Positions 39,217 to 64,000 of a stretch of 64,000 nt of DNA are shown one piece after another (the stretch's first letter is position 1; every line of letters starts with the position of its first letter). A model generated the notes under the pieces. The model saw nothing but the letters and a program-made list of their open reading frames with translations. It was not told the DNA's origin and made no database searches. The DNA is from Mytilus edulis (lineage: Eukaryota): NCBI RefSeq assembly GCF_963676685.1, contig NC_092355.1:1054001-1118000 (forward strand), given 5' to 3'. The translations under genes were made by a program, and so were the position numbers.

Positions 39217-39413
39217 CTGTGGATTCATTTACTTTCGTGGGTACCAATTTTCGTGGATTCAGAAAAACTTGCATATTCATGGATATTTAATTTCGTGGTT
39301 TTGCTGAAGTCTGCATACAAACCTATAGAAAAATTATCATTCGTTGAATATTTAATTTCGTGCCCACGAAATCCACGAAAATTGGTATCGAACGAATTAT
39401 AATGAATCCACAG
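39217..39413. mobile_element. TA-target MITE
   Basis: TA-CTGTGGATTCATT...AATGAATCCACAG-TA with internal TTTCGTGG/CCACGAAA repeats. Confidence 0.85.
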
Positions 39414-42662: not shown

Positions 42663-44638
42663 CACTACAAATGGTCAGAGTCTGAATTGACCAGTTTTTG
42701 TGCTCGACCAGTAAAATCGAGCACATATTTTACTCGACTAGTCTCTACATTGTCTCGACTGTACTTAACTGTACTTATGTGTACTCGACTAGGTCTCGAC
42801 TTTACTTAGTTAGTCCGATTCAGTACTTAATGATCTTGGTTTAGTCTAAAATGGTCTTGACCAAGGCTCGACCTGTCTCGACCTGTCTCAACTAGTCTTG
42901 GCCTTCAAATTTAGTTTTGACTGTTGTAAATCAGCCAACCTAACTAAAATAAATATTGATCTTACAAAATCCAAGCTTCATTTGTTGTTTGATTTAATGC
43001 TGTGAAATGAAAGAATTTATTACATAAATTCAGATAGTCATCCCATGTCATTTTGTTCTTTGATGAATTGCTGTAAAATAAAAGATTAAAATTAATCCTG
43101 GTAAAAAAAGCTAGGGTATTTCAATTTGGACAAAATAGAGATAGTACACTTTAATTTTTTTAATAAGTTTTTCAAATCAACTTTGATTTTTTTCAAAATA
43201 TGCAGCTATCTCAGATATATATGAAGCTTACTGAATCCCAAGTCATTTTGTTTTCTGTTGTATTGCTGTCAAATTTAAGAATTAAATTAATCTAAGTAAA
43301 CAAAGCTAGAATTTGTAGTTCGGACAAACAAAAATAAAGTGTACTATCTCTATTTTGTCTGAATTCAAAAGTTATGCTTTTTTTTACCAAGATTAATTTA
43401 ATTCTTAAATTTTACAGCAATACAACAAAAAACAAAATGACCTTAGATTCAGTAAGCTTAATATATATCTAAGATAGCTGTATAGTTTGATGAACATCCA
43501 AGTTAATTTGAAAAAGATATAAAAAAAAATAAAGATTCCTATCTGAATTGAAATAAGAATTTTTAGTTTTACCTATTGTAAAATTAAATTCTCTTATTTC
43601 CCAGCAATAAATCAAACTACTAAAGAAGGTTGCATTTTGTAAGATCAATATTTGATTAAGATGGGCTAATTTACACCAGTCAAAACAAAATGTGAAGGTC
43701 AAGACTATTCGGGACAGGTCGAGACTGGTTAAGACTAGTCGAGACTAGTCGACACAGGTCGAGACAGGTCGAGCCTAGGTCAATACGATTTCTGACTTAA
43801 CCAAGATCATTAAGTACTGAATCAGACTAATTAAGTTAAGTCGAGACCTAGTCGAGTACACTGAAGTAAAGTTAAGTATAGTCGAGACAATGTCGAGACT
43901 AGTCGAGTAAATTATTTACGAGGGTATCACCAGCCCAGTAGCCAGTACTCCGGTACTGGCATGAAAATACGGATTTTTTTGTGTTGTTAAATTTGCTGTT
44001 ACAAAATATTAAAAATTATTATAAATTAAGGAATGTATCTCCCTCATGCACAGCTCTGATTCCTTTCACGGATTTGGCTATACTTTTTGGATTTTTTGGA
44101 TTATAGCTCTTCATCTTTTATATAAGCTTTGGATTTTACATAGTTTGGCCACGAGCATCACTGAAGAGACACGTATTGTCGAAATGCACATCTGGTGCAG
44201 AATAATTGGTACCGTTAATGTTATTACTACCACTGGGTCGATGCCTCTGCTGGTTGACTGTTAGTCCCCGAAGGTATCACCAGCCCAGTAGCCAGTACTC
44301 CGGAACTGGCATGAAAATACTGATTTTTTTGTGTTGTTAAATTTGCTGTTACAAAATATTAAAAATTATTATAAATTAAAGAATGTATCTCCCTCATGCA
44401 CAGCTCTGATTCCTTTCACGGATTTGGCTATACTTTTTGGATTTTTTGGATTATAGCTCTTCATCTTTTATATAAGCTTTGGATTTTACATAGTTTGGCC
44501 ACGAGCATCACTAAAGAGACACGTATTGTCGAAATACGCATCTGGTGCAGAACAATTGGTACCGTTAATGTTATTATGCTCAATTTTATTGGTCGAGCAC
44601 AAAAACTGGTCAATTCAGACTCTGAGCAGTTTGTAGTG
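42663..44638. mobile_element. Non-autonomous CACTA/EnSpm-like foldback element
   Basis: Termini CACTACAAA...TTTGTAGTG, imperfect inverted arms of ~300 bp with many TCGAC/GTCGA subrepeats, flanks ATC/ATT. Confidence 0.75.
43917..44574 (+). mobile_element. Retrozyme (350-nt unit, ~1.9 copies) nested in the CACTA-ended element; hammerheads at 44155-44198 and 44505-44548 (second core mutated)
   Basis: Same family as 20772-21211. Cores CUGAAGA and CUAAAGA are 350 nt apart. Confidence 0.82.
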
Positions 44639-47574
44639 ATTACCAGGAACATACACTAATTATAAATGTAAGGTTTTTTACTATTTATTAGTACAAACGT
44701 CTGTATGATGATCACCTACATGACCATCAATTATAATTTGAGACACCAAAATCGTGTTTAATATCATCTGGTATCACGGGGTTATATTGACGTGCAAATA
44801 AAAATATAATTAATATAACCTCCACACCGATGTAAACAGGACAAACTAAAACAAAACTAAAAAAGTTCACTCGTTTCAGACATAAACAGATTAAAAAAAG
44901 ATGAATAATGAAAATATTGAATCCATTCGAATATAAGATAAACGTCTCGTGTATATTATAGTGTAGACGACATCTAATTAACTATAGTGTTTATCTTCGT
45001 GCGATTTTATTAGGTATGTTATCATTCATGTTAGTGACGAAAAATATATGTTACTTATCGTTTTTAATTGTATAAGAATTATTTGTTTTGGATCGAATCA
45101 GGCAATCTAATAATCTTTTTATTTTGTTCCACTTTCAATGTTAAAACTCGTTTCATGTTAGACATGTAACACTGATGCGTAGTTCGTCTCAAGCGAAAGG
45201 ATAACATTGAAGGTAACATGAATATAAATTCAACTAGGTTGAATCATTCACTTGTTGCATCAACGATTTTTCTTATCTTATTTCAACAAAATTGACCGCA
45301 CTGGCGTTGTTAAAAGCGAAAAATCATTTAGTGTTTCACTAATAATAATGATTGAATACAAATGAATAGATATCTTGTAGCCGGTGCCCATCTGATTATG
45401 TAAACAAACTTATCAGTAATGCCAGTTTTATAATTTTGGTATGCTAAACGGACATTTTGTCTACATCAGACTAAACATAACTGCTTGTATCAATACCTAG
45501 TCAAATACAATGACGTTAAAGAGCATAATACATGTATTAATACACAAATCGTTTCAAATACTAGTACACCCGAAACAGCGTATACATTATAAAATGTATC
45601 TTTACATAGATCCTGCTGACTGAATTCCTTTTATTCCTTTTTTCCACAAGGTGACATATCAGTATAAACTTGTCTATTTATTACGTTAGAGAAATCTATA
45701 TGATAGAGATAAATGGTGTCATATCTTTATTTGTGTCATGGGAGTTTCTATTTCAGATAACTTTGTTATATTTTCATTATGTGATGAGCAATATACTAGA
45801 TATCAGTGTTTTGAATTTCGAAGGAAACTTTGACACTTAGTACAGATTAAAAACACTTTACAAAAACACTTTATGAATGTGTACTCATAATGTTCAACTT
45901 ATAAACAAATCTCTTAAGTACCCAGCTTTTTTCTTAGATTTAATTGAATAACCCGACATCTTAGAATGAATACAAATAATATTAACACAAACAGACATAA
46001 TACATACATTTGATTTTGGATAAAATTGAGAATGAAAATGAAAAATATGTCAAAGAGACAGCAACCTAGTCAAAAAGAAGAAAACGATCGGAAACCATTT
46101 TTGAGTCCTTAACACAGCATGGAAATATCGCACCATCAGGCTTGCTTCAGCTGGTCCCTTAACCCAATTGTGTACTAGTTTAGATAAATGAACGTCATAA
46201 AAAACCGAAATATATATATGAACTAAAATCAAAAATCAGACAAACAAAGGTCAGAGACTGTACAGAAACATTGTTTTTATTATAAGACTGTTCGTTTTAC
46301 AATGTTTTATTGTTTGAAGTTATAAAGTTAAAAATTAACACTTAATACTAAAACATGATAAAATCGTCCAAATATTTTCATCGATTAAAAATGCGAATTC
46401 AGAACAAAATTCTAATTTGGGGAAACACCAAATATCGATGTATTTTTTCTTTTTTGGGGTTGCGTTATAAAAGATGAAAAAGTACATGCAACAACAACAG
46501 CATGATGATAATTATATAAAAATAGGCAGATAGCGGCAAAACAGCAGTCAAATTTATTATTCAATGTAAAGCACTACAACCTGAAAATGTGAACCCCTCC
46601 AAGAACTGACAGTGATTGCATGTGCTTTAGAGAAAAATCAGATCCTTCACCACATGTTACGCACCTCTTTTGCTTATGGTATCACACTCTTAGAGATGAT
46701 TCTATTCGGTAGGTTGCTTACGAGAAATAGAACTGTTTTGGTTTTTGATTTTTTGTATTTTTATTTTTGAAAATACGTAAAGACACACAGAATGTCTACC
46801 ACAGCAAAATACATACTTATTTAAACGATAGAATTTAAACATCCATTACAGAACTTGTCTTAACATTGGTATTTACCTAGATTCATCTTTTTTTTAATTT
46901 TTTCGTATCGGCTAACATATCATCAACTTTACCAACTTAATTATCAGTAAAGATTTTCTAGCAAATTTGTACTTATACTACAAGACATTAATTGAGCTGT
47001 CGTTTGAAGTAAGAAACAAGAAAAGTTCCCCATGACACATAACATCATTAACAATTACAGTTCATCAAAGGGGAAAATATATATTTACTTAGATGATTCT
47101 GTAGCGGGTCAATTGGCGAAAAGGGCAGAAACACATACACCGAAAACTTTGGATATAAAATCCCGAAGTATTAAACTAAAACCTCTGGCAACACCCTTAC
47201 AATGAACTGAAAGAAGGGGTTCTTGATACTGACAGCAAACAATTCATATTTAAAGTTGCAAATACTTTATTTCTGACAAAAGTATATATATATAGCATAA
47301 CAATAACATAACAGTGGCATATATTTGAGATCACAATTTTAGTCAAGCTCAAGACCAATAAGAAAAACAACTTGCAAATTTATCAATAATAAGTACACCT
47401 TTAAGTGAATTTCCAGACAACTATTGCCTAGGGTATCTTTTCAAAGGTTGATCAAAAATACTAAAACTACTCATAAAGAGTATAACTACTGTAACATTAA
47501 CTGCTATGATGTTCTCTCGTTTGTTGAGAATAAGAGCAGATATGGACAAAAATATTATATGTACTCATGTATCC

Positions 47575-47737
47575 AAGTACATCTGACCTCACAGAACAAA
47601 ATAATGGGTATTTATGTATTAAAAGTACATCTGACCTCACAGAACAAAATAATGGGTATTTATGTATTAAAAGTACATCTGACCTCACAGAACAAAATAA
47701 TGGGTATTTATGTATTAAAAGTACATCTGACCTCACG
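47575..47737. repeat. 48-bp tandem repeat (~3.4 copies) inside the LTR; also at 58386-58548
   Basis: Unit AAGTACATCTGACCTCACAGAACAAAATAATGGGTATTTATGTATTAA. Confidence 0.9.
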
Positions 47738-48783
47738 CTAATTATACTGGGACATAAATCATGAAAATGAATATTATAATTGTAAGAACTAGAATTTTGC
47801 TTAAACAGTGTAATTGCTTCCACAGGCTAACACTATAGTCTAGATTTCCAAACTTGGTTATTACAAAGTTTACTTATGGGCAATTATGCGACTTATTGAA
47901 AGCTTTTAATGATGGCAAGAATTTAGTAGAGACTTTGTATTAGCTTCCTTTTACTAAAAACGTAAGTCTCACAATTATGATAGAGTTTAGCAAAGACTTT
48001 GTATTAGCTTCCTTTTACTAAAAACGTAAGTCTCATGTTCCCCTGACCTTTATTCTTAACAGTGAACTTTAGTGAAGTTAAAATCAAGAACTATAATTTT
48101 ATTGCAATAATGTTTGTTGAGACATTGTTTTAGTATCCTTTGGCTAAAAACGATTGTCTCAAAAGTGATCAGAAGAAAATGACAAGATATGGCAAGTAGT
48201 ACAATCATCTATTTTACTAACAATGTTCCTTTAAAGTTTTGACTGACTATACATGTATAGATATTTGATTACAAAATGATGACTTGTATTATTGTACAAA
48301 ATGATTGGCTAACTGTTTTAGTCTTTTAACCAAAAATATGGAAGATTTGTACTAGTTTCCTTCACTAGTAATGTGTATTTCTATGTTTATCTCATTGTCT
48401 GAAAACCCTATTAGAACCCTTAATTGTGCAAAAGACTTAAATTTACTGAATCACCCTTTATAAGTGACATGAAAATTCTATATAAGTATTGTCAAAATTG
48501 TTCCGTTAAGTTACATGAAAACTTCAGACAGTGATTCGGCAAAAAGTATTATTAACGTACGAAATTTCTCATCAGAAAAATATGTATACGTAAATTCTAT
48601 GGTTTATGTATTGTAATTCAATTTAAACCATTATTATTAAACAATGACAAATTCTCATAATTTTCCTAGATTCCTCAAGTTTTCCGTGAAATTTTGGTAA
48701 AATATTTGCGTAAATCGTTTTTAAACAATTATGTGCACTTTAAAATGTTAAAAACTTTACAAAAAGTAAAGTAAATCTATTAT

Positions 48784-48962
48784 TCTTACTTTCAAAAGAA
48801 TATCTCCTTATTATTTTATCAACGTCTTAGCCAGAATGACGTCAGACTCGCGTTTTGGGGTTTTATACTTGTACTTAAAAATTGTGCAAGTTTTGTGCAT
48901 TTTCCGTGCAGTTTCTGTGCGATTTTCTACCGCGCAACTGCAAGATTGGACAGTAAACCAAT
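48784..48962 (-). promoter_or_regulatory. LTR core promoter: CCAAT motifs, TATAAAA at -30, Inr TCATTC (+1 = 48837) overlapping a CRE palindrome, splice donor GTAAGA at +49
   Basis: TATAAAA begins at 48867, exactly 30 nt upstream of the A of TCATTC. TGACGTCA at 48837-48844. CCAAT motifs near 48945-48962. Confidence 0.6.
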
Positions 48963-49670
48963 GGAAATCATTTGCGGCATTTCTCACTTCGGCCGTTATG
49001 AAATGTTTATATTTATTAAATAGATATACAAAAATCATTCTCAGCGACTTTATATTTGCTAAAATGTTTGTTCCGTAAATAGAATATAATAATAAAATTT
49101 CTTTCGATTGAGCTAAAAATACTCGTGACCTTCCGTAATCGTTCGACCAATGAAAACGCTTCATTACCGTTAACTGAAGATGGCGCTGAAAGGAAGCCAG
49201 GTGCTTGTCTGTCAACGAATTTCGACAAGTTATGTAGTTAAACAAAATGTTCTGACATAAAACTTGTAATTCCCTATACCGAAATGACTTGAGGAAACTG
49301 TACAGATAAGTAAGTTCACATGACACAATCAAAAAATGTACATACGAGTAAAAACAACACTCGGTTCAATGAAAGTAAATAAATACGGGGATCGTCTCAT
49401 AACAGTAAATAACAGATTCCATAGTAAACAGTAGATACAATATTCTATAATAAAATGACTGCATTATAACCTATTCTGCCAGTTATTAGTTATTTGAATC
49501 TGAATAAAAATTATAGAAATAATCCTGAAAAGGGAATGCACTGATTCTATCTTTGTCTCTGAATAAGTAGAGTGAAATTTAGAATTGAACAGCATACAAT
49601 TATACACATTTGAAGTTTTAAGAAAAGTAGTTATTATAAGTACAATTGATAAATGGTACCCGTCACATTA

Positions 49671-49680
49671 CCCCCCTTTT
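49671..49680 (-). other. Polypurine tract of copy 1
   Basis: AAAAGGGGGG, then TAA, immediately before the TG of the 3' LTR. Repeated at 60482-60491. Confidence 0.9.
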
Positions 49681-49973: not shown

Positions 49974-51059
49974 TCAGGTTCTTTTGGTATATCTTGGCAT
50001 GGGTGTAATACTCCTTCTTTGGGCTGGCCGGTAAGGAGAATATCTGTTCCTGTTGTAGTGACGGGCTGGAGAGGCATTCCTTTGTCTGTTCTCTGTGTTT
50101 TGACCTCGAACTACAGACCGTAGTCCGGTCACCTGACTAGTCAGTCGTACAATTTCCTTCTGCATGTTTTCCATGTTAGTTGTCATAGTACTGGTAAAGT
50201 TTGTAAATTTTTTTGTTAGTTCCTCCAACAAAACCTTATGGGAGCATGTGCTTGAAGATGATGATGATGATGATGAAGAGGATGAAGATTTTCTTTCAGA
50301 ATTATTTGTTGGAACCATGTTCCATTCTTCAGCTGGATGTGTGTTTGTGGTGATGGTAGTAGTTGTCTGCTCGAACACAAACTCGTCTGGCTGTGACTGT
50401 TGCTCTTCCTCCAGCTCTTCCAGTTCTCTTTCGCGGGCTATGATTTTCCTTATAGGGGAGGAGAGTGGTGTACCCACTGGTTCAGGTCTTTCCTCCACCA
50501 CTTCTGCTTCCTGCACTACATCTACCACTATTTCCTCCACCACTTCTGCTTCCTGCACTACATCTACCACGATTTCCTCCACCACTTCTGCTTGCTGAAC
50601 AACGTCTACCACTTCTGCTTCCTGCACTACTTCAACCCGACATACTGCCTCAGCTGGTTGTACCACAGGAGTTGGACCAAATGTTGGAGTATATCCTCTG
50701 GTCCTTATCAACGATTCACCGCGGGTCATCTTCTCTAGGTCTAAACCTATTACGGATCGGTATGGTAAGGGACTCTTTTTGATATATGCTCGGTCTCCCT
50801 GGTACTGACCCCTATTGATCATCTCTTCCTTCTGTATCTGGTGGGGTCGGAAGTACTGGCCATGCTTTATCATCTCGCTTTCCTTGCCACATCGGAAAAG
50901 GCATAAGGTGCAATAATATGGCACTACTTCTAAAGGCACATGTAGTTTCCAGATGTGGCCTTCAACACGGTGTTTTTGACCAATGTAACCATCTTGGTCA
51001 ATACATTTGAGGCAGCGATATAACCTTCGGATTTGTTTGTTGTTTAGATTGTCTGACAT
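49974..51059 (-). CDS. ORF3: 361-aa protein with two C2H2-like zinc fingers, acidic Val/Glu repeats, poly-Ser, coiled-coil-like segment and Arg-rich C-terminus
   Basis: C-x2-C-x15-H-x4-H and C-x2-C-x12-H-x6-H. ATG at 51059 follows the acceptor TTTTTATTGCAG|A. A long open frame within AT-rich flanks. Confidence 0.85.
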   Translation of the reverse strand: MSDNLNNKQIRRLYRCLKCIDQDGYIGQKHRVEGHIWKLHVPLEVVPYYCTLCLFRCGKESEMIKHGQYFRPHQIQKEEMINRGQYQGDRAYIKKSPLPYRSVIGLDLEKMTRGESLIRTRGYTPTFGPTPVVQPAEAVCRVEVVQEAEVVDVVQQAEVVEEIVVDVVQEAEVVEEIVVDVVQEAEVVEERPEPVGTPLSSPIRKIIARERELEELEEEQQSQPDEFVFEQTTTTITTNTHPAEEWNMVPTNNSERKSSSSSSSSSSSSSTCSHKVLLEELTKKFTNFTSTMTTNMENMQKEIVRLTSQVTGLRSVVRGQNTENRQRNASPARHYNRNRYSPYRPAQRRSITPMPRYTKRT

Positions 51060-51823
51060 TCTGCAATAAAAATAAAAATATAAAGTATGTTGCCAGTGGC
51101 ATTGCACTTTATAAAGAGCTAGACCAAAACATATAAGGTTCCAACTTTGGTTCCTTCTGTTAAGGTTGAAGTTTTTCCTACATTGATAATTTATTTATTT
51201 TATAAGTATGTTAAAATTCAGCATAGCACAGCATTATTTTTATTTGGTACCACACGACTTTACAAAATAAAACAAATTGTACTAAATCTTGCCACTTATT
51301 GTCATTTTTACCTAAATTCTTAATACACCCCATTTATGTTAAGGCCTGAGAGATTATTATATTAAACGCATTTCCGTTTTGTGACAGCAACTCAAAGACA
51401 GAAAACAAATTATTAAATGACAAATTAGGAAGTATCCTAGCGTTTATTTTATTTTTACAAAGGCTGGTATTAACACACTAATTCAAATAGTGTGTACATA
51501 ACTATATACAAAGAAAAACTAAGTACCTAATGTTCCCAAATTATATTATTGGGAGACTATCCTTAACAAAAAAAAAAACATCATTTAATCCTACATTCAA
51601 TTAAAACTAAAAGATTAACTTGAGTACAATCTTGAGCTTGACTATTCCTTATCACATTTAAATTTTATGTACAACTTTATCAGTTTATTTACATTTGGAA
51701 AGAAACATTTTGAAAACATACAAAATGTACACACATAAAAAGAAACAATCATGTAAAATACTTGATCAATACAAGTATAAACATATAACTTATGTCGTAC
51801 ATGTACATGTATAGCATTTAATA

Positions 51824-54800
51824 TCATTTATTCTGAGTTTCAACTTGTTTAATCCATTTTTGGGTGCTAGTCCCTTTATATGGCTTTAGTTTGTTATGGT
51901 TGACCACTTTTTTGGTTCCTTTTGCATCTATCTGTATTTGATAATTTAGGTCATTGTATCTGTTTACTATCAGACATGGACCCAAAAATAAAGGTTGTAA
52001 CTTGAAACAACTTCCTTCTCTCCTTGTTTCGTTTAGGTACCACACTTTGTCAAACTTTTGGTATTGGACAAGGTTGGCTTTGACATCATAGTGATCTTTT
52101 CTTTTTCTAAGGTTAACTTCCAAATGTTTTCTGGCTACTTGATGGGCTTTCTGTAATCTCTCTCGTACTTTAAGCGCATGGTTTCCCCATGTTCCCTGTT
52201 CAGTTTCTGAAACAAATTCTGTTCCTTCTCTAGTTAGCTCATAGGGAAAACGAATTTCTCTGCCTAACATCATTACATTGGGAGTTAAACTAGTCGTATC
52301 ATGTGGACAAGCTCTATATGCACTCGCAAGGCATCCAAGATTAAGATCCCAGTTCGTCTGCTCTCCTCTCAAATAAGATTTTATCATAGAAACCAAAGTT
52401 CTGTTAAAACGTTCAACTTGACCATTGCACTTTGGATTACGGGGGCTTGTCCTTGTCTTGCGTATATCTAATATACTACACAATTCTTGGAAAATGTCGC
52501 TTTCGTAATTCCGACCTTGATCAGAATGTATGGCCAAAGGGAAACCAAAACGACAAATTACATCATTCAAGATAATATTAGCGCATGTTGTAGCTGTTTG
52601 GTCAGGAACTGGAAATACTTCAACCCATTTAGTAAAGTAATCCGTAACTGTTAAGATGTACCGATTATTCCTGGGAGTAAGCGGCAATGGCCCAAGGAGA
52701 TCAGTTGCAAGTCTGTCGAGGGGCCCTCCAACTGGCATTTTTCCCAACGGAGCCCTCAATAATTTTTGAGGAGGTTTGTTGGCCCCACAAATGTCACATT
52801 GGCTTATCCAAATTTGTATGTCTTCTTTCATCTCGTACCAGTAATACCGTTGACCTAATTTTTCCTTTGTTTTGTTTTTGCCTAGATGTCCTGACAAAAT
52901 TGAGTTGTGCATGTTATTTAGTACTTCCTTTTTCATCTTGTCTGGAACTAAGAATTGTCTGTAGTCTCCTGAACCATCTCTTCGGCTGTACTGCTTAAAC
53001 AGCAGACCATCTTTCTTAACAACTGATTCCCATAGGTGCCAGTAGTGTCTGGTAGCAGCACTGTATTTTTCTAATTCTTTTGAATTAGGTCGAGTGTCAC
53101 CTTCCTTCCACTGTAAGAGAGGTCCGATATCTGAGTCATCTTCCTGTAGTTTTAATAATTCTTCTTTTGAGTGTCCATTACTCCATGTTGTCCATATATT
53201 ATCATCTGAAGTCTGTTGTCTTGTTTTTACTGCACAAATCTGTATAGGTTCTCCACCATCTTTGTTTTTAGTTGGATCTTCAATATTTTCCTCATGGATT
53301 TCTGGCGATAGCAATCTTGTACTCTGCATTTCTATGGCACGATTTCGACACTTCTTACAGGGACCACATTTTAGGTACTCCAAATTGTCTACATCCGCAC
53401 ACTCACAATCTTTTGGATTATAACATCTAGACAAAGCATCAGCATTCCCATGTTTACTACCGGGGCGATATTCAATGGAGAAATCGAAATTGGATAGAAT
53501 TTCTAACCATCTAGCTATTCGACCTTTAGGCTCTTTCATGCTAAAAAGCCATATCAATGCCTGGTGATCAGTACGTACACAGAATTTACGTCCTAGCAGA
53601 TACTGCCTGTAGTATTCAATAAAGTAGCGTACTGCTAAAAGCTCTTTGTCCGTTATACAGTAGTTGCGCTCTGCCTTATTAAGGGTACGACTACCATAGG
53701 CTATAACTTTCAATGTACCATCCTGTATCTGACTTAACACTGCTCCAATAGCTGTGTCACATGCATCTGTGTCCAAATAGTATTCACCTTCATCTCTGGG
53801 AAAAGCCATAATATCTGTACTAGTGAAAGCTTGTTTTAGTTTCTCAAAAGCAATTTGGCATTCCTTTGTCCACTCAAATGACTTAGATTTCTTGGTCAGG
53901 TCAGTTAAGGGTTTTACCATGGCTGACAAGTCCTTAATAAAACGTCTGTAGTAGCTACCCATGCCTAAAAGTTGTCGTACTTCAGTGACGGTTGTTGGTA
54001 CAGGCCAAGATAAAATTTTTGCTGTATTGTCCGGATTTGGACGAATTCCTTCATCCGAAACCACATGACCTAGAAAAGTGACCTCTGACTTCAGGAGTTC
54101 ACATTTCTCTGGTTTTAATTTCAACCCCGATTCCAAAATTCTGTTTAAAACTGTATCTAGCCTTGACATGTGTTCTTCGAAACCGTTACTAAATACAATG
54201 ATATCGTCTAGATAAATTAGACAAATTTGCCATTGAAGCCCATGAAGTACAAGTTCCATCAATCGTTGACAAGTAGCTGGACCATTGCAGACTCCAAATG
54301 GCATCGTCTTGAACTCATACAGACCATATTTGGTTACGAATGCTGTCTTGGAAATATCATCTTTCTTCATGGGAATTTGGTGATATCCACTGGTCAAATC
54401 GAAGGTCGACATCAAGGTGGCGCCACCTACGGCATCCAGACAGTCTTGTATTCTCGGAATAGGAAATGAGTCCAGCCGAGTAAGGGCGTTCAAAAATCTG
54501 TAGTCACAGCACGGGCGAATCTTCCCGTTTTTCTTGACCACTAGCTGTAATGGACTTCCCCAAGGTGAATTTGACTTTTGTATGATCCCTTGATCTAACA
54601 TTTGTGTTATGGCTTTCCTCTCGTCATTGGCAAAAGCAAGTGGAACTCTTCGTGGTGGTTGTTTAACTGGCTTGGCTTCACCGGTGTCAATTGTATGTTC
54701 CACTAGGTGTGTCAGCCCTAGGTCTGTATCATTTACTGAAAATGCTGCCGAATATTTTTGCAAAAGACTAACTATAGCCTCCTGTTCATCTTCTGGACGG

Positions 54801-56107
54801 TTGTTCGCTGCATCATCATATAAAGAACGTAAATGTGTAGGTACGACTCCACTTTTCCCTCCGTCAGTTGTTCCTTTATTTGCTAGACTTCTTATTATTC
54901 CCTCATTTGTCTGCCATGTGACAGGTTTGGAACCTGTTAATTTTATTCGTCGGACAGAGTTGAAGTTCTGTGACTCCTCACTGTCTTCCTGTGAAAATAG
55001 CGTAATTGGATCAGTATTTAATTTTTCTGCAATTCCAATAACTGCATCTTGATTCAGCTTTACCTCTTGATCAAAAGGATTCATGAGTCTGACCTTATTA
55101 GTCACTTCTTCTCCAATTTCAACAAGACAGGCGGCCATTACTAATGGATAGGTATCTTCAAATTGTGGGCAAGGTTCTATTAAGTAGTCTTGTGGACAGT
55201 TGTGTAAATCTTTGTCGAAACGGTCAACAAAAACATCAATAAGTATCTCACTTCTTGGCTGTATGACATAATGATCAGCTGATCTAACTTTTCTTATTGG
55301 TTCCGTCTGTCCAACTTGGATACATGGGATAGTGGTACTATTAAGCAAGATAACTCCTTCTGTTAATTTTATATCAGCTGGGCCTTGATCTCCTTTCATT
55401 AGGATATCTAAACCTAAGAGAGCTTCATCTTCTATCTCAGCAACTATGAGTTCCTTTTCTAAGGCCAACTCACCCAGTGTCAAGTTAAAAACAGCTTTTC
55501 CTAACTCTTTCAATGGTTGTCCGTCAGCACTAGCCAAAGAACTAGATTTTTGAAGTTTTGGTCTTTTTGATGAAAGTATTTTTCTGAATGTTTTAGTCGA
55601 AATAACAGTTCGTGTAGCTCCAGTATCAGCAGTAAATGTAACATCAATTCCTTCAATACTTCCTTGGATATATACTCCTTCACATCTCAAAACTTGTCTT
55701 CCAATAATATGAGTTTCAACTGGTGGAAATCTTTGAACATCATCTAGGCCTTCAGACGATTTCATCGATACTTCCGCAGTACAAGTGCCAGCAGGACTAT
55801 CACCTCTATGCAAGGGTGAATACTCAACCTCCTGTTCACTCTTGTGACTCAGTGGAGGACTATCACCTCTAATCAAGGGTGAATGCTCAACCTCCTCATT
55901 TATTCTTACTGGTTTCAAAACATGACAACTATCAATATCAATTTTATCTAGACCCCCCTTTTTTGTACTTAAACTTTTATTCTCAGAAATTAAACTGCTA
56001 TTTTGACCTTTAACATCATTCAAATTTTGACCTTTAACATCATTCAAATTTTGACCTTTAACATCTAAAACTGTATGGGTCACCTCCCGGTCATCAGAGA
56101 TGCCCAC
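51824..56107 (-). CDS. pol: Pol polyprotein: aspartic protease, reverse transcriptase, RNase H, integrase; reached by -1 frameshift
   Basis: ADTGA (PR), YLDD (RT), DTDAC..KELLAV..TDH (RH), H-H-C-C and D,D,E (DLLGP/SDQG/VER) integrase, GPY/F-like LFLGPC. Uninterrupted 1427-codon frame; no chromodomain. Confidence 0.97.
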   Translation of the reverse strand: MGISDDREVTHTVLDVKGQNLNDVKGQNLNDVKGQNSSLISENKSLSTKKGGLDKIDIDSCHVLKPVRINEEVEHSPLIRGDSPPLSHKSEQEVEYSPLHRGDSPAGTCTAEVSMKSSEGLDDVQRFPPVETHIIGRQVLRCEGVYIQGSIEGIDVTFTADTGATRTVISTKTFRKILSSKRPKLQKSSSLASADGQPLKELGKAVFNLTLGELALEKELIVAEIEDEALLGLDILMKGDQGPADIKLTEGVILLNSTTIPCIQVGQTEPIRKVRSADHYVIQPRSEILIDVFVDRFDKDLHNCPQDYLIEPCPQFEDTYPLVMAACLVEIGEEVTNKVRLMNPFDQEVKLNQDAVIGIAEKLNTDPITLFSQEDSEESQNFNSVRRIKLTGSKPVTWQTNEGIIRSLANKGTTDGGKSGVVPTHLRSLYDDAANNRPEDEQEAIVSLLQKYSAAFSVNDTDLGLTHLVEHTIDTGEAKPVKQPPRRVPLAFANDERKAITQMLDQGIIQKSNSPWGSPLQLVVKKNGKIRPCCDYRFLNALTRLDSFPIPRIQDCLDAVGGATLMSTFDLTSGYHQIPMKKDDISKTAFVTKYGLYEFKTMPFGVCNGPATCQRLMELVLHGLQWQICLIYLDDIIVFSNGFEEHMSRLDTVLNRILESGLKLKPEKCELLKSEVTFLGHVVSDEGIRPNPDNTAKILSWPVPTTVTEVRQLLGMGSYYRRFIKDLSAMVKPLTDLTKKSKSFEWTKECQIAFEKLKQAFTSTDIMAFPRDEGEYYLDTDACDTAIGAVLSQIQDGTLKVIAYGSRTLNKAERNYCITDKELLAVRYFIEYYRQYLLGRKFCVRTDHQALIWLFSMKEPKGRIARWLEILSNFDFSIEYRPGSKHGNADALSRCYNPKDCECADVDNLEYLKCGPCKKCRNRAIEMQSTRLLSPEIHEENIEDPTKNKDGGEPIQICAVKTRQQTSDDNIWTTWSNGHSKEELLKLQEDDSDIGPLLQWKEGDTRPNSKELEKYSAATRHYWHLWESVVKKDGLLFKQYSRRDGSGDYRQFLVPDKMKKEVLNNMHNSILSGHLGKNKTKEKLGQRYYWYEMKEDIQIWISQCDICGANKPPQKLLRAPLGKMPVGGPLDRLATDLLGPLPLTPRNNRYILTVTDYFTKWVEVFPVPDQTATTCANIILNDVICRFGFPLAIHSDQGRNYESDIFQELCSILDIRKTRTSPRNPKCNGQVERFNRTLVSMIKSYLRGEQTNWDLNLGCLASAYRACPHDTTSLTPNVMMLGREIRFPYELTREGTEFVSETEQGTWGNHALKVRERLQKAHQVARKHLEVNLRKRKDHYDVKANLVQYQKFDKVWYLNETRREGSCFKLQPLFLGPCLIVNRYNDLNYQIQIDAKGTKKVVNHNKLKPYKGTSTQKWIKQVETQNK

Positions 56108-56119
56108 CCTTAGTTTAAT
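56076..56119 (-). promoter_or_regulatory. Putative -1 ribosomal frameshift signal
   Basis: A-UUA-AAC directly before the gag UAA, a 6-nt spacer, then hairpin UGGG-CAUCUC...GAGGUG-A-CCCA. pol is in the -1 frame with ~11 codons of overlap. Confidence 0.7.
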
Positions 56120-57819
56120 GGAAAGCCTGGTGGTGGTACCCCCATATTAGGGTTGGGACCAAGGTTACCGTTATTTTGTCCCCATTGTGGTTTAAAGTTA
56201 TTGTTTTTTGAAGGAAATCTGTCTGCAACTCTATCTGGATTTGCGAAACAATTTCTCGCAAAATGTCCCGGTTGTCCACAGTAATAGCATAATCCATTCT
56301 GTCTTGGACCCTTATGTTGGCCATCATTGGATTGAAATGGAGTCTGACTGGTTCCTGGTCTACCATATGTCTTATGCTGTAATTCTTGCTTTTTGTCTTC
56401 AAACATCTTGTTAAATAAAGATTGCAAATCCCCTTCTTTAATAGTTAGACTTTTATTTTTGTCTTCAATCTGGCTTTCAACAGACGTTTTCTCCGCTCCC
56501 TGGTAATTGTCGGACTTTTTGTCATTATCCTTTCTAGTAATGTTTTCATTCTTTTGTCCTCCTTTCACTTGTCGTACTGCCTTCTTATTATTTTCTTCTC
56601 CTTGATTCGGATTTTTCATGGTCTCTACGTATGTAATGACTTCTTGTACTGCTTCTTCTATGGTTTCAGGATCTTTGTTTAATTCTATATGAATACGGGC
56701 CTTATAATCTATGAGTCCCAAGAGAAATCTCTGTAGTAGATCTTCTTGGCGTGTACTTGCATATCTGTTTTTGTAGGCTTTGTCATATAGCCTTTTTAAC
56801 TCTGCTGCAAATTTTTCTGGTGTCTCTCCGTTTAACTGTTTTCTTCTACTAAATTGAAGCCGGTATGTTCTGGTGGTCTCTATGACTCCAAATCTATTTT
56901 TTAGATCTTGTACCAACTTTTTGTAGTTCCTGATAGTCTTCTTTGGCAATTGATCAAACGTGAAGTCTCCAGCGTCTCCTTGTAACCTGGGTAACAACTC
57001 TTGAAGTCTATCTTCCTCATTCCAAGATTTAAGTTTTGCAACTGCTTCGAATCGATTGAACCAGACCTCCCACTTCTCTTGACCAGTAAAAGATGGAAGC
57101 TTGACATTATGTGAACTTGACTTCTGTTTTGACTGTGTTATTCTATTGGTAGATACACTACAATCAGAATCCACAGGTTCATGGCAATCTTCCTCTGAGC
57201 TGGAATCACTGGAGTAACTACTCTGTATGCTTGACTTTCTAGTTGTCTTACATGTTGAGGTACTTTTTACATGTCTTGGTTTTCTCCTATGTGGTGGTTC
57301 TGTATTTGATTTGATAGTATCTGTACTGGATGGTTGAGCGATAACATTGCTACTAAAAGCAGCTTGTATCGCAAAAATAACCTGGGTAGTCATATCTTGT
57401 ATGGCATTCTTAAGTGTACCATAAATGCCGGTATGTTCATTGGGTGACAGAGGACGTGTCTCCTGCACCAAATTTTCTTTCTGAGGACGTGTCTCTTGCA
57501 CCAAATTTTCTTTCTGTAATTTATTACTCTTTTGTCTCTTGTTGTATAACCTCGAACTTCGTCGTAAATCTAAAGTCTGAAAATTCTTTTGTATCCCACT
57601 AGTACTTGGTGTACTCTGTGGTAAATTCCTGGTGTTTGTAACCATAGTCTGTTCAGCTTGCTCGATTTCTGAGTCGGACAGATCGGTATAGCCAGTAGCC
57701 TCTGTCTCTGTAGTATCATTCTGTCCGGTCTGATAATCATCAGTGTCGTCTGTAATGATTTCTCTTCCACTTTCATCTCCACTACCTACTGGTGGTATAT
57801 GTGTTCTTTTTTTCACCAT
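56110..57819 (-). CDS. gag: Gag polyprotein (569 aa from first ATG), capsid-like domain plus CCHC zinc knuckle
   Basis: Motifs VKLPSFTGQEKWEVWFNRFE and CYYCGQPGHFARNC. First ATG at 57819; the ORF track starts at an upstream GTG. Confidence 0.93.
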   Translation of the reverse strand: MVKKRTHIPPVGSGDESGREIITDDTDDYQTGQNDTTETEATGYTDLSDSEIEQAEQTMVTNTRNLPQSTPSTSGIQKNFQTLDLRRSSRLYNKRQKSNKLQKENLVQETRPQKENLVQETRPLSPNEHTGIYGTLKNAIQDMTTQVIFAIQAAFSSNVIAQPSSTDTIKSNTEPPHRRKPRHVKSTSTCKTTRKSSIQSSYSSDSSSEEDCHEPVDSDCSVSTNRITQSKQKSSSHNVKLPSFTGQEKWEVWFNRFEAVAKLKSWNEEDRLQELLPRLQGDAGDFTFDQLPKKTIRNYKKLVQDLKNRFGVIETTRTYRLQFSRRKQLNGETPEKFAAELKRLYDKAYKNRYASTRQEDLLQRFLLGLIDYKARIHIELNKDPETIEEAVQEVITYVETMKNPNQGEENNKKAVRQVKGGQKNENITRKDNDKKSDNYQGAEKTSVESQIEDKNKSLTIKEGDLQSLFNKMFEDKKQELQHKTYGRPGTSQTPFQSNDGQHKGPRQNGLCYYCGQPGHFARNCFANPDRVADRFPSKNNNFKPQWGQNNGNLGPNPNMGVPPPGFPLN

Positions 57820-57883: not shown

Positions 57884-57903
57884 GAATCCCACCGAGGATG
57901 CCA
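57884..57903 (-). other. Primer binding site (TGGCATCCTCGGTGGGATTC), tRNA-Leu-like and imperfect
   Basis: TGG-initiated motif 7 nt downstream of the LTR end. CGGTGGGATTC is complementary to the 3' region of tRNA-Leu(AAG/UAG) as I recall it. Confidence 0.7.
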
Positions 57904-57910
57904 GAAAATA

Positions 57911-60478
57911 TGTAGCGGGTCAATTGGCGAAAAGGGCAGAAACACATACACCGAAAACTTTGGATATAAAATCCCGAAGTATTAAACTAAAACCTCTGGC
58001 AACACCCTTACAATGAACTGAAAGAAGGGGTTCTTGATACTGACAGCAAACAATTCATATTTAAAGTTGCAAATACTTTATTTCTGACAAAAGTATATAT
58101 ATATAGCATAACAATAACATAACAGTGGCATATATTTGAGATCACAATTTTAGTCAAGCTCAAGACCAATAAGAAAAACAACTTGCAAATTTATCAATAA
58201 TAAGTACACCTTTAAGTGAATTTCCAGACAACTATTGCCTAGGGTATCTTTTCAAAGGTTGATCAAAAATACTAAAACTACTCATAAAGAGTATAACTAC
58301 TGTAACATTAACTGCTATGATGTTCTCTCGTTTGTTGAGAATAAGAGCAGATATGGACAAAAATATTATATGTACTCATGTATCCAAGTACATCTGACCT
58401 CACAGAACAAAATAATGGGTATTTATGTATTAAAAGTACATCTGACCTCACAGAACAAAATAATGGGTATTTATGTATTAAAAGTACATCTGACCTCACA
58501 GAACAAAATAATGGGTATTTATGTATTAAAAGTACATCTGACCTCACGCTAATTATACTGGGACATAAATCATGAAAATGAATATTATAATTGTAAGAAC
58601 TAGAATTTTGCTTAAACAGTGTAATTGCTTCCACAGGCTAACACTATAGTCTAGATTTCCAAACTTGGTTATTACAAAGTTTACTTATGGGCAATTATGC
58701 GACTTATTGAAAGCTTTTAATGATGGCAAGAATTTAGTAGAGACTTTGTATTAGCTTCCTTTTACTAAAAACGTAAGTCTCACAATTATGATAGAGTTTA
58801 GCAAAGACTTTGTATTAGCTTCCTTTTACTAAAAACGTAAGTCTCATGTTCCCCTGACCTTTATTCTTAACAGTGAACTTTAGTGAAGTTAAAATCAAGA
58901 ACTATAATTTTATTGCAATAATGTTTGTTGAGACATTGTTTTAGTATCCTTTGGCTAAAAACGATTGTCTCAAAAGTGACCAGAAGAAAATGACAAGATA
59001 TGGCAAGTAGTACAATCATCTATTTTACTAACAATGTTCCTTTAAAGTTTTGACTGACTATACATGTATAGATATTTGATTACAAAATGATGACTTGTAT
59101 TATTGTACAAAATGATTGGCTAACTGTTTTAGTCTTTTAACCAAAAATATGGAAGATTTGTACTAGTTTCCTTCACTAGTAATGTGTATTTCTATGTTTA
59201 TCTCATTGTCTGAAAACCCTATTAGAACCCTTAATTGTGCAAAAGACTTAAATTTACTGAATCACCCTTTATAAGTGACATGAAAATTCTATATAAGTAT
59301 TGTCAAAATTGTTCCGTTAAGTTACATGAAAACTTCAGACAGTGATTCGGCAAAAAGTATTATTAACGTACGAAATTTCTCATCAGAAAAATATGTATAC
59401 GTAAATTCTATGGTTTATGTATTGTAATTCAATTTAAACCATTATTATTAAACAATGACAAATTCTCATAATTTTCCTAGATTCCTCAAGTTTTCCGTGA
59501 AATTTTGGTAAAATATTTGCGTAAATCGTTTTTAAACAATTATGTGCACTTTAAAATGTTAAAAACTTTACAAAAAGTAAAGTAAATCTATTATTCTTAC
59601 TTTCAAAAGAATATCTCCTTATTATTTTATCAACGTCTTAGCCAGAATGACGTCAGACTCGCGTTTTGGGGTTTTGTACTTGTACTTAAAAATTGTGCAA
59701 GTTTTGTGCATTTTCCGTGCAGTTTCTGTGCGATTTTCTACCGCGCAACTGCAAGATTGGACAGTAAACCAATGGAAATCATTTGCGGCATTTCTCACTT
59801 CGGCCGTTATGAAATGTTTATATTTATTAAATAGATATACAAAAATCATTCTCAGCGACTTTATATTTGCTAAAATGTTTGTTCCGTAAATAGAATATAA
59901 TAATAAAATTTCTTTCGATTGAGCTAAAAATACTCGTGACCTTCCGTAATCGTTCGACCAATGAAAACGCTTCATTACCGTTAACTGAAGATGGCGCTGA
60001 AAGGAAGCCAGGTGCTTGTCTGTCAACGAATTTCGACAAGTTATGTAGTTAAACAAAATGTTCTGACATAAAACTTGTAATTCCCTATACCGAAATGACT
60101 TGAGGAAACTGTACAGATAAGTAAGTTCACATGACACAATCAAAAAATGTACATACGAGTAAAAACAACACTCGGTTCAATGAAAGTAAATAAATACGGG
60201 GATCGTCTCATAACAGTAAATAACAGATTCCATAGTAAACAGTAGATACAATATTCTATAATAAAATGACTGCATTATAACCTATTCTGCCAGTTATTAG
60301 TTATTTGAATCTGAATAAAAATTATAGAAATAATCCTGAAAAGGGAATGCACTGATTCTATCTTTGTCTCTGAATAAGTAGAGTGAACTTTAGAATTGAA
60401 CAGCATACAATTATACACATTTGAAGTTTTAAGAAAAGTAGTTATTATAAGTACAATTGATAAATGGTACCCGTCACA
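57911..60478 (-). repeat. Shared LTR: 5' LTR of copy 1 and 3' LTR of copy 2
   Basis: Flanked by the copy 1 PBS on one side and the copy 2 PPT on the other. I found only 3 substitutions versus 47100-49667 by eye. Confidence 0.95.
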
Positions 60479-60784
60479 TTACCCCCCTTTTAGAATTTGT
60501 GTCCCTACAAATTGGTTATGATAATCAATAAATAAAAGAATTTGAAAACCATAAGAACAATATGATATAATGGTACTAAATGTACACGTAAAGTTTTCTC
60601 CAATTTGAATTTCATAAAACAAAAAAATCAATTACTACCAGACTTTTTGTTTGAATTTAAAAACCAATTTTTCTATATTTACTCTATCCTAAATATATTC
60701 AATTAAATACCTAATTATATAAATAATCATTATTCATGTACAAACAAAATCACAAGAAAGAAAAATATATAACACAAATACAGT

Positions 60785-61870
60785 TCAGGTTCTTTTGGTA
60801 TATCTTGGCATGGGTGTAATACTCCTTCTTTGGGCTGGCCGGTAAGGAGAATATCTGTTCCTGTTGTAGTGACGGGCTGGAGAGGCATTCCTTTGTCTGT
60901 TCTCTGTGTTTTGACCTCGAACTACAGACCGTAGTCCGGTCACCTGACTAGTCAGTCGTACAATTTCCTTCTGCATGTTTTCCATGTTAGTTGTCATAGT
61001 ACTGGTAAAGTTTGTAAATTTTTTTGTTAGTTCCTCCAACAAAACCTTATGGGAGCATGTGCTTGAAGATGATGATGATGATGATGAAGAGGATGAAGAT
61101 TTTCTTTCAGAATTATTTGTTGGAACCATGTTCCATTCTTCAGCTGGATGTGTGTTTGTGGTGATGGTAGTAGTTGTCTGCTCGAACACAAACTCGTCTG
61201 GCTGTGACTGTTGCTCTTCCTCCAGCTCTTCCAGTTCTCTTTCGCGGGCTATGATTTTCCTTATAGGGGAGGAGAGTGGTGTACCCACTGGTTCAGGTCT
61301 TTCCTCCACCACTTCTGCTTCCTGCACTACATCTACCACTATTTCCTCCACCACTTCTGCTTCCTGCACTACATCTACCACGATTTCCTCCACCACTTCT
61401 GCTTGCTGAACAACGTCTACCACTTCTGCTTCCTGCACTACTTCAACCCGACATACTGCCTCAGCTGGTTGTACCACAGGAGTTGGACCAAATGTTGGAG
61501 TATATCCTCTGGTCCTTATCAACGATTCACCGCGGGTCATCTTCTCTAGGTCTAAACCTATTACGGATCGGTATGGTAAGGGACTCTTTTTGATATATGC
61601 TCGGTCTCCCTGGTACTGACCCCTATTGATCATCTCTTCCTTCTGTATCTGGTGGGGTCGGAAGTACTGGCCATGCTTTATCATCTCGCTTTCCTTGCCA
61701 CATCGGAAAAGGCATAAGGTGCAATAATATGGCACTACTTCTAAAGGCACATGTAGTTTCCAGATGTGGCCTTCAACACGGTGTTTTTGACCAATGTAAC
61801 CATCTTGGTCAATACATTTGAGGCAGCGATATAACCTTCGGATTTGTTTGTTGTTTAGATTGTCTGACAT
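60785..61870 (-). CDS. ORF3 of copy 2 (same translation as copy 1)
   Basis: Identical translation to 49974-51059, with the same splice acceptor upstream. Confidence 0.85.
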   Translation of the reverse strand: MSDNLNNKQIRRLYRCLKCIDQDGYIGQKHRVEGHIWKLHVPLEVVPYYCTLCLFRCGKESEMIKHGQYFRPHQIQKEEMINRGQYQGDRAYIKKSPLPYRSVIGLDLEKMTRGESLIRTRGYTPTFGPTPVVQPAEAVCRVEVVQEAEVVDVVQQAEVVEEIVVDVVQEAEVVEEIVVDVVQEAEVVEERPEPVGTPLSSPIRKIIARERELEELEEEQQSQPDEFVFEQTTTTITTNTHPAEEWNMVPTNNSERKSSSSSSSSSSSSSTCSHKVLLEELTKKFTNFTSTMTTNMENMQKEIVRLTSQVTGLRSVVRGQNTENRQRNASPARHYNRNRYSPYRPAQRRSITPMPRYTKRT

Positions 61871-62634
61871 TCTGCAATAAAAATAAAAATATAAAGTATG
61901 TTGCCAGTGGCATTGCACTTTATAAAGAGCTAGACCAAAACATATAAGGTTCCAACTTTGGTTCCTTCTGTTAAGGTTGAAGTTTTTCCTACATTGATAA
62001 TTTATTTATTTTATAAGTATGTTAAAATTCAGCATAGCACAGCATTATTTTTATTTGGTACCACACGACTTTACAAAATAAAACAAATTGTACTAAATCT
62101 TGCCACTTATTGTCATTTTTACCTAAATTCTTAATACACCCCATTTATGTTAAGGCCTGAGAGATTATTATATTAAACGCAGTTCCGTTTTGTGACAGCA
62201 ACTCAAAGACAGAAAACAAATTATTAAATGACAAATTAGGAAGTATCCTAGCGTTTATTTTATTTTTACAAAGGCTGGTATTAACACACTAATTCAAATA
62301 GTGTGTACATAACTATATACAAAGAAAAACTAAGTACCTAATGTTCCCAAATTATATTATTGGGAGACTATCCTTAACAAAAAAAACAACATCATTTAAT
62401 CCTACATTCAATTAAAACTAAAAGATTAACTTGAGTACAATCTTGAGCTTGACTATTCCTTATCACATTTAAATTTTATGTACAACTTTATCAGTTTATT
62501 TACATTTGGAAAGAAACATTTTGAAAACATACAAAATGTACACACATAAAAAGAAACAATCATGTAAAATACTTGATCAATACAAGTATAAACATATAAC
62601 TTATGTCGTACATGTACATGTATAGCATTTAATA

Positions 62635-64000
62635 TCATTTATTCTGAGTTTCAACTTGTTTAATCCATTTTTGGGTGCTAGTCCCTTTATATGGCTTTAG
62701 TTTGTTATGGTTGACCACTTTTTTGGTTCCTTTTGCATCTATCTGTATTTGATAATTTAGGTCATTGTATCTGTTTACTATCAGACATGGACCCAAAAAT
62801 AAAGGTTGTAACTTGAAACAACTTCCTTCTCTCCTTGTTTCGTTTAGGTACCACACTTTGTCAAACTTTTGGTATTGGACAAGGTTGGCTTTGACATCAT
62901 AGTGATCTTTTCTTTTTCTAAGGTTAACTTCCAAATGTTTTCTGGCTACTTGATGGGCTTTCTGTAATCTCTCTCGTACTTTAAGCGCATGGTTTCCCCA
63001 TGTTCCCTGTTCAGTTTCTGAAACAAATTCTGTTCCTTCTCTAGTTAGCTCATAGGGAAAACGAATTTCTCTGCCTAACATCATTACATTGGGAGTTAAA
63101 CTAGTCGTATCATGTGGACAAGCTCTATATGCACTCGCAAGGCATCCAAGATTAAGATCCCAGTTCGTCTGCTCTCCTCTCAAATAAGATTTTATCATAG
63201 AAACCAAAGTTCTGTTAAAACGTTCAACTTGACCATTGCACTTTGGATTACGGGGGCTTGTCCTTGTCTTGCGTATATCTAATATACTACACAATTCTTG
63301 GAAAATGTCGCTTTCGTAATTCCGACCTTGATCAGAATGTATGGCCAAAGGGAAACCAAAACGACAAATTACATCATTCAAGATAATATTAGCGCATGTT
63401 GTAGCTGTTTGGTCAGGAACTGGAAATACTTCAACCCATTTAGTAAAGTAATCCGTAACTGTTAAGATGTACCGATTATTCCTGGGAGTAAGCGGCAATG
63501 GCCCAAGGAGATCAGTTGCAAGTCTGTCGAGGGGCCCTCCAACTGGCATTTTTCCCAACGGAGCCCTCAATAATTTTTGAGGAGGTTTGTTGGCCCCACA
63601 AATGTCACATTGGCTTATCCAAATTTGTATGTCTTCTTTCATCTCGTACCAGTAATACCGTTGACCTAATTTTTCCTTTGTTTTGTTTTTGCCTAGATGT
63701 CCTCACAAAATGGAGTTGTGCATGTTATTTAGTACTTCCTTTTTCATCTTGTCTGGAACTAAGAATTGTCTGTAGTCTCCTGAACCATCTCTTCGGCTGT
63801 ACTGCTTAAACAGCAGACCATCTTTCTTAACAACTGATTCCCATAGGTGCCAGTAGTGTCTGGTAGCAGCACTGTATTTTTCTAATTCTTTTGAATTAGG
63901 TCGAGTGTCACCTTCCTTCCACTGTAAGAGAGGTCCGATATCTGAGTCATCTTCCTGTAGTTTTAATAATTCTTCTTTTGAGTGTCCATTACTCCATGTT
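62635..64000 (-). pseudogene. pol: pol 3' part of copy 2 (integrase) with in-frame TGA at 63703-63705
   Basis: TCA (Ser) at 52892-52894 in copy 1 is TGA here, between the two His residues of the HHCC motif. Confidence 0.85.

Follow-up and report, generated by a model that had tools for sequence, protein, structure and literature searches.

How identical LTRs pass over the 5' poly(A) site yet make use of the 3' one is known for a few retroviruses, and the same question is raised by a retrotransposon of the mussel Mytilus edulis. In the window (the whole analysed stretch of 64,000 nucleotides, positions 1,054,001 to 1,118,000 of NC_092355.1), one LTR was predicted to carry on its minus strand a promoter, a splice donor, a poly(A) signal and an acceptor. 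Does such an LTR contain an intron, does its single donor feed both gag-pol and a third open reading frame (ORF3), and how would the transcript get past the poly(A) signal of the 5' LTR?

The LTR under study is the middle one of three in a tandem and is shared by two internal copies; the LTR-internal-LTR-internal-LTR array lies on the minus strand with a period of 10,811 nt, and its third LTR is outside the window (Table 1). All three LTRs are 2,568 bp long, are bounded by TG...CA and differ from one another at 3-4 sites, and the two internal copies show 5 differences over 8,243 nt. The array is flanked by the 4-bp target duplication GAAT, and a 4-bp target-site duplication is found at all five insertions of the family that were examined (the array and four others). 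The array is a very recent Ty3/Gypsy insertion. LTRs with a target duplication, primer binding site, polypurine tract and gene order identify the element as a Ty3/Gypsy LTR retrotransposon (Metaviridae): gag precedes protease, reverse transcriptase (RT), RNase H and integrase in the Ty3/Gypsy order (Pfam), and pol overlaps gag in the -1 frame. The gag, pol and ORF3 frames are all open in copy 1, and pol of copy 2 carries one stop. Across the RT region the element is identical to a database protein assigned to Mytilus edulis. No envelope family match was obtained, ORF3 being the only open reading frame between pol and the LTR, and because there is no env gene the element does not belong to the spumaretroviruses.

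Table 1. Features of the array and of its middle LTR, in window coordinates (a slash marks a splice site)
Feature	Position	Strand	Remarks
Middle LTR	57911..60478	-	serves internal copy 1 as 5' LTR and internal copy 2 as 3' LTR
3' LTR	47100..49667	-	3 differences from middle LTR; TATAAAA at 48867-48861; GAAT shared with outer LTR beyond window
Primer binding site	57884..57903	-	complementary to host tRNA-Arg(TCT) genes; 7 nt past LTR
gag	56110..57819	-	569 aa; PNMA-like capsid region, CCHC knuckle; ATG 57819
pol	51824..56146	-	protease, RT, RNase H, integrase; open in copy 1
ORF3	49974..51059	-	361 aa; ATG 51059
Polypurine tract	49670..49680	-	precedes 3' LTR
Internal copy 2, 3' part	60479..64000	-	second ORF3 (61870-60785) and pol end; extends past window
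Inverted CCAAT boxes (ATTGG), two	59962-59958, 59773-59769	-	in CpG-richer stretch (59769..59962) ending at cassette
TATA position, -30	59672..59678	-	TACAAAA in middle LTR
TGACGTCA	59645..59655	-	overlaps Inr TCATTC; predicted +1 is A at 59648
Predicted 48-nt first exon	59601..59648	-	no ATG
Predicted major splice donor AAA/GTAAGA	59594..59600	-	G is 59600
Proposed intron	58018..59600	-	1,583 nt, AT-rich, 23 ATGs
(TA)n run	58094..58105	-	TATA box if R is short
Likely poly(A) signal AATAAA	58077..58082	-
Proposed U5 acceptor CCCCTTCTTTCAG	58018..58031	-	ends 58018; ordinary score
ORF3 splice acceptor TTTTTATTGCAG	51061..51080	-	ends 51061; used in X1

Every motif of the original prediction is present on the minus strand of the LTR at the place assigned to it, and comparison with other copies refines the picture. 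The CCAAT box at 59760-59756 exists but is missing from 6 of 10 LTR copies; it is the inverted boxes, not this plus-sense one, that recur in other families. At the TATA position the middle LTR deviates with TACAAAA, whereas TATAAAA stands in both sister LTRs and in 11 of the 12 copies of the family. The initiator was found with A+1 at 59648, overlapped by TGACGTCA, presumably a CRE-like palindrome, and the donor predicted at +49 follows a 48-nt exon. This start would leave 830 nt for U3 and about 1,590 nt for R, close to the predicted ~830 nt and ~1.6 kb.

Relatives of ORF3 mark further element families in the Mytilus genome, among them C9a (LTR of 2.0 kb) and C2 (2.8-2.9 kb), whose RTs are about 75% identical to that of the window element. 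The LTRs of the three are barely alignable, and a 28-nt match around AATAAA is shared by two of them only. A cassette of TATA, AAAACGC, ACGTCA(C/T)T and, 48-55 nt further on, GTAAG nevertheless occurs at LTR position 830-970 in three of the five families scored; in C9a and C2, AAA/GTAAG lies 54-55 nt after ACGTCA(C/T)T, at LTR position 940-1,020. Dinucleotide shuffling of the three LTRs produced a TATA-Inr-GTAAG cassette 8, 3 and 6 times per 1,000 shuffles, with spacing ranges that were set after the three cases had been seen. In the three families, 12/12, 17/19 and 8/10 copies retain GTAAG; within families, conservation of the donor does not clearly exceed that of its flanks. CpG peaks end at the cassette in the LTRs that bear it. 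Two of the five families scored lack the cassette: C1d, and the non-autonomous family X, which encodes gag and protease. A looser AAG/GTA(A/C)A follows a TATA/Inr-like site by 70-110 nt in C1d and in a sixth family. Conservation of a promoter-donor cassette across such diverged families favours a long R, and transcription probably starts near 59648. In L313, an element of another host with a complete LTR end, the best TATA lies only ~290 nt before AATAAA, the interval holds no canonical donor, and GTAAG occurs as a donor farther upstream; given L313, the long-R layout may not be universal.

The 3' end of the transcript is more firmly placed. The original prediction took the AATAAA at 58082 as the poly(A) signal, and this choice is supported by an X4 contig that ends at 58086 and by the conserved place of the signal: in each of the five families scored, 158-225 nt separate the last AATAAA from the end of the LTR. 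X1 and X4 are sets of assembled contigs guessed to be RNA, and X21 and X24 are raw RNA reads. Depth in X4 is 56 over 60121-58518 and 40 over 58415-58086 and then falls to about 2, a drop that fits 3'-end formation at this AATAAA, which is probably where the 3' end is made. Two further AATAAA at 58914 and 58865 (span 58860..58914, minus strand), absent from the original prediction, lie within the proposed intron and are read through in RNA contigs. The same interval carries internal duplications (a 48-nt unit repeated ~3.5 times at about 58547-58360 and a ~64-nt unit repeated twice at 58846-58729), and copies differ by indels mostly in this stretch from donor to poly(A) signal.

Neither of the two predicted joints, 59601->58017 and 59601->51060, was found in X1, X4, X21 or X24, a search of low power because assembled contigs drop minor branches and most LTR RNA appears not to start in the LTR. 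X21 and X24 contributed only 46 and 3 reads, from diverged relatives. Record 7 of X1 (59321-60122) and record 15 of X4 span the donor at 59600 unbroken, and U3 is as deep as R, with no depth step at 59648, so that most LTR RNA here appears to come from upstream and not from the LTR promoter. A joint 57913->52017 in X1 was rejected as a splice, for it begins at the LTR end and has no donor; it was read as an internally deleted copy.

The acceptor in front of ORF3 is better documented. In X1, depth is ~60 across ORF3 against 1.2 just upstream, and the contig stops at 51061. A second X1 contig joins 51061 to foreign sequence that ends exactly at a perfect donor, CACG/GTAAGT; this donor is present in 11 of 12 pattern matches, and the partner sequence occurs as pairs of a 200-bp LTR from an unrelated family. 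The 30-nt loose end has no match with at most 2 mismatches in the genome or the window, and its junction-proximal 17 nt lead to the foreign short-LTR family. A joint at a perfect foreign donor shows that X1 contains spliced RNA and that the ORF3 acceptor is functional. For the predicted splice from 59601 to 51060, the acceptor is thus confirmed in use, while the donor seen is a foreign one; moreover, the X1 ORF3 contig starts at G 51061, whereas a leader junction would give A 51060. In X4 the acceptor is crossed unspliced at depth 14.

Other families and other hosts point to the same site. A pyrimidine-rich YAG stands 0-1 nt before the ORF3 ATG in five mussel families and 0-30 nt before an in-frame ATG in all ten ORF3-bearing loci from other hosts, which came from an RT scan of metagenomes (86 loci, mostly with truncated LTRs, 10 of them with ORF3). 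The acceptor scores of these loci range from 12 to 16 with a median of 15, background windows scoring mostly 10-13. An ORF3 query against metagenomes gave no match, and no retro-copy of a spliced ORF3 mRNA was present among the loci examined. The acceptor before the ORF3 ATG is the strongest comparative signal. An ORF3 mRNA is almost certainly made by splicing at 51060, and a joint with the 59601 leader is rather favoured.

The observations are best accommodated by a foamy-like LTR with a long R, a donor at 59600 and an ORF3 message spliced from the leader, a model that as a whole is given a probability of roughly 0.5. Transcription would start near 59648 and cleavage would occur near 58055, leaving an R of about 1.6 kb that holds the donor upstream of the poly(A) signal. 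The main job of the donor would be env-style, joining the ATG-free 48-nt leader to 51060 in the ORF3 mRNA. U1 bound to this donor, which is close to the cap in the 5' LTR, would weaken the poly(A) site there and let unspliced genomic RNA pass; in the 3' LTR, the same donor would lie 2.3 kb into the last exon and be ignored, and the RNA would be polyadenylated. A splice to 58017 would shorten the gag leader and cut its upstream ATGs from 24 to 1; this is the weakest step. ORF3 would in turn regulate the element, export or splicing control and transactivation being rated about equal. The claim that splicing bypasses the 5' poly(A) signal survives in part, as it could rescue a gag-pol mRNA but cannot protect the unspliced genome. 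The genome stays unspliced and must therefore pass the 5' poly(A) site otherwise, by U1-type suppression or leakiness.

A stronger role for the intron is conceivable: the splice 59601->58017 would be regular and make the gag-pol mRNA, and unspliced RNA would be the genome, exported by ORF3. The gag leader is 1,829 nt long with 24 ATGs when unspliced and would be 246 nt long with 1 ATG after the splice, which agrees with such a role, as do the reductions from 14 to 1 and from 8 to 0 in two other families. The acceptor lies 198 nt before the gag ATG, matching the predicted ~200 nt. In keeping with a regular splice, a YAG with a pyrimidine tract follows the last AATAAA by 35-65 nt in all five families, with scores of 12, 13, 16, 13 and 14. 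On this simple score the acceptor at 58018 is not above chance, because its value of 12 is matched by 25 of the 138 AGs in the LTR; among 143 AATAAA sites taken as controls, 57, 35, 18 and 3 have an AG 20-80 nt downstream that scores at least 12, 13, 14 and 16, respectively. The 161 nt before the acceptor form the least variable segment of the LTR (0-3 substitutions and no indels in 6 copies), a point in favour of a regular splice; a U-rich element downstream of the poly(A) site, however, mimics an acceptor and could explain this conservation, and the 58018 acceptor could be just such an element. An X1 contig of depth 30 also runs unspliced across AATAAA and 58018 into an internally deleted copy. 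A spliced RNA would keep the primer binding site and 48 nt of R, so that intron-less LTRs are expected if it was ever copied; none was seen among 14 matches to the U5 end or among 41 copies aligned over the donor, these being drawn from 12/16, 21/22 and 10/11 matches from which partial and duplicate pieces were left out. That the splice 59601->58017 takes place at all is a tentative proposal, and that it is the regular route to gag-pol is unlikely. A candidate acceptor after the primer binding site (GGATCYAG) was discarded, as its pyrimidine tract is poor and family X lacks the AG; it is more likely a hairpin with the primer binding site.

The extent of R and the origin of the ORF3 message could each be read differently. 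If the (TA)n run at 58105-58094 served as the TATA box, transcription would start just past AATAAA, U3 would measure about 2.4 kb and hold enhancer repeats, and the cassette would be an enhancer/CRE module or a second promoter. A short R agrees with four families (that of the window element, C2, C1d and X) in which a TATA-like run precedes the last AATAAA by no more than ~40 nt. AATAAA in U3 with a short R is known from RSV and MMTV (PMC3694450), and the even RNA depth from U3 to 58086 fits a 3'-LTR transcript under either model. Such a start is nonetheless improbable, as C9a has no TATA-like run near its AATAAA (the nearest is about 170 nt away), the conserved TATA-30-Inr-50-GTAAG spacing would go unexplained and the ORF3 acceptor would be left without a donor; an X1 contig linking the LTR from 58415 to the internal region also speaks against it, weakly, since contigs may be chimeric. 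It is quite improbable that most ORF3 mRNA stems from foreign LTRs, host exons or the pol-ORF3 spacer, through other donors or an internal promoter, and that the LTR donor is minor. The sole junction seen does have a foreign LTR donor, and near 51250, before ORF3 begins, X4 loses depth, from 14 to 3. The nested foreign LTR, however, is a one-off absent from the window copy, and an acceptor kept at the ATG throughout the clade needs a native donor, for which 59600 is the sole conserved candidate.

The protein itself suggests what the spliced message may serve. ORF3 has two C2H2-like fingers (C16 C19 H35 H40 and C50 C53 H66 H73), an acidic repeat linker, a predicted coiled coil at 273-327 and an Arg/Ser/Pro/Tyr-rich tail; the predicted structure is confident at residues 11-120 and in the helix 273-327, the acidic linker and the tail being disordered. 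The eight Cys/His ligands are kept in 90-100% of 62 aligned rows, at a spacing longer than that of classical C2H2 fingers. Relatives fall into 290 clusters at 50% identity, the named ones coming from Mytilus, the clam Mercenaria and the gastropod Gigantopelta. Searches of Pfam (sub-threshold), PDB profiles (best E 1.6e-5) and Foldseek (E 0.49) gave weak C2H2 similarity only, and PDB sequences, VIA-align and the ESM Atlas likewise returned nothing beyond weak resemblance to C2H2 fingers and generic coiled coils. The tail has 11 Arg in its last 45 residues, and tails of 69 full-length matches are 17% Arg and often RS-like; 11 of these 69 contain R-x(1-5)-PY, presumably a PY-NLS-like motif, against a shuffled mean of 2.1, which is too sparse to define the family. 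Matches of a loose regular expression for a leucine-rich export signal fall only inside the folded finger domain. With this anatomy, ORF3 probably acts in the nucleus as an oligomer that binds nucleic acid and regulates the element. By analogy, a role in RNA export or splicing control is possible, and one as a promoter transactivator equally so, fingers with an acidic linker fitting a Tas-like transactivator as well as an export factor; some other function is a little less likely. Like Rev, Rex and CERV, ORF3 is made from spliced RNA, as the X1 joint indicates.

The element class, env-type splicing and a donor inside R, as in foamy viruses, are already known. A literature search of incomplete coverage yielded no description of this lineage, of its ORF3 or of an intron within the LTR of an LTR retrotransposon. 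The mollusc C-clade and MolGy1-16 are also bivalve Gypsy elements, and the main text describing them lacks the terms 'long LTR', 'additional ORF' and 'PBS' (PMC6238403). In the literature searched, ORF3 thus represents an accessory-protein family without a description found and without a Pfam model.

In Drosophila gypsy, env is translated from a spliced message. More generally, spliced ORF3 messages are typical of LTR elements, and the mussel ORF3 shares with the env-type cases an acceptor directly before the start codon (PMC5408684). The mussel donor, by contrast, is predicted in the LTR rather than after the primer binding site, and the protein belongs to none of the env, DEDDy, GDSL and TM types. 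A Gypsy ORF in the ORF3 position is also found in the C. elegans element Cer1, whose CERV protein is made from spliced RNA and acts as a genome-export factor (PMC10309623). CERV has exons in common with gag, carries a C4 finger together with a G-protein-like domain and, according to the same text, lacks homologues outside nematodes (PMC10309623), whereas the mussel ORF3 starts at an ATG of its own and combines two C2H2-like fingers with an Arg/RS tail.

The closest parallel is offered by foamy viruses, in which a donor in R upstream of the poly(A) signal suppresses that signal in a U1-dependent manner, a layout called unique in the text available (PMC3694450). The mussel element resembles them in a predicted donor in R before the poly(A) signal, in LTRs that both carry both sites and in a putative regulatory gene 3' of pol, and a poly(A) signal downstream of the donor is indeed found (AATAAA 58082, with X4, guessed to be RNA, and five of five families). 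It differs in the size of R, 193 nt in PFV and about 1,590 nt as predicted here, and in having no env; U1 suppression has been shown in foamy viruses and is proposed in the mussel. Donor and AATAAA are less than 200 nt apart in foamy viruses and 1.5 kb apart in the mussel LTR, a distance that counts against a foamy-type model. An acceptor inside U5 is not described for foamy viruses in the accessible text (PMC3694450).

It is a bold and rather unlikely proposition that a widespread invertebrate Gypsy lineage independently evolved a complex-retrovirus programme, in which an LTR intron would hold the poly(A) signal, one donor would choose between genome, gag-pol and ORF3, and ORF3 would shift this choice or export the genome. 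Young copies, one fully open internal copy and expressed relatives make the favoured long-R model testable with existing mussel RNA data. If it is true, the length of R would challenge models of strong-stop transfer and of how far U1 protection reaches, and ORF3 would join Cer1 CERV as a second candidate among LTR-retrotransposon proteins for a Rev- or Tas-like role. A Gypsy element with a foamy layout and an R ~8 times longer would then represent an independent solution to the one found in foamy viruses.

Downstream of the tRNA-Arg primer binding site (PBS), the GGATCYAGTGATACG-type motif lies 20-30 nt from the PBS, is conserved in all families as well as in other hosts and is able to pair with the PBS end, with which it may form a putative hairpin for primer activation or dimerization. 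Further along the element, pol overlaps gag in the -1 frame; the gag stop codon has A TTA AAC immediately 5' and a G-rich stretch 3', and the overlap is, as judged from sequence, a likely candidate frameshift site.

The same tRNA-Arg PBS is found in a young non-autonomous family (L117-L128 and L132-L136, drawn from 10 PBS matches, of which 8 were fetched), with LTRs of 1.9 kb, identical up to 100%. Its coding part consists of gag and protease only. In the host genome, tRNA-Arg(TCT) and tRNA-Lys(TTT) genes alternate in a long tandem array with a period of ~1.2 kb (G000:C4:50724199 onward, L099-L116).

An unrelated Gypsy family (L137-L147, e.g. G000:C1:53511790 and C7:74915514) has LTRs of 200 bp, and at 24 nt from the end of the LTR these contain a perfect splice donor. 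In run X1, a set of assembled contigs presumed to be RNA, this donor was joined by splicing to ORF3 of the window element. The 3' ORF of this family is GC-rich and, by eye, TatD-like. An extra ORF, likewise TatD-like by eye, is carried by the 3' end of a different retroelement inserted adjoining an LTR of the related ORF3-bearing C2 family (L129, G000:C2:53352400-53354500).

Features of the window
Feature	Position
Segmental repeats, ~10 kb each, 3-4 diverged copies	5000-41000
24-nt minisatellite	3230-4800
47-nt minisatellite	38260-39310
Nested inverted repeats	42700-44600
gag/pol overlap	56146-56110
GGATCYAGTGATACG-type motif	57884-57850
U3 differing in expressed copies	60122-60339

The segmental repeats are likely a tandem host gene cluster. 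The X1 joint 57913->52017 (depth 30), in which the LTR end runs directly into the integrase tail, with the pol 3' end retained, is interpreted as an expressed, internally deleted copy. In both X1 and X4, expressed copies differ from the window in their U3 sequence, and the loose ends there look like the end of a MITE/Helentron common in bivalves.
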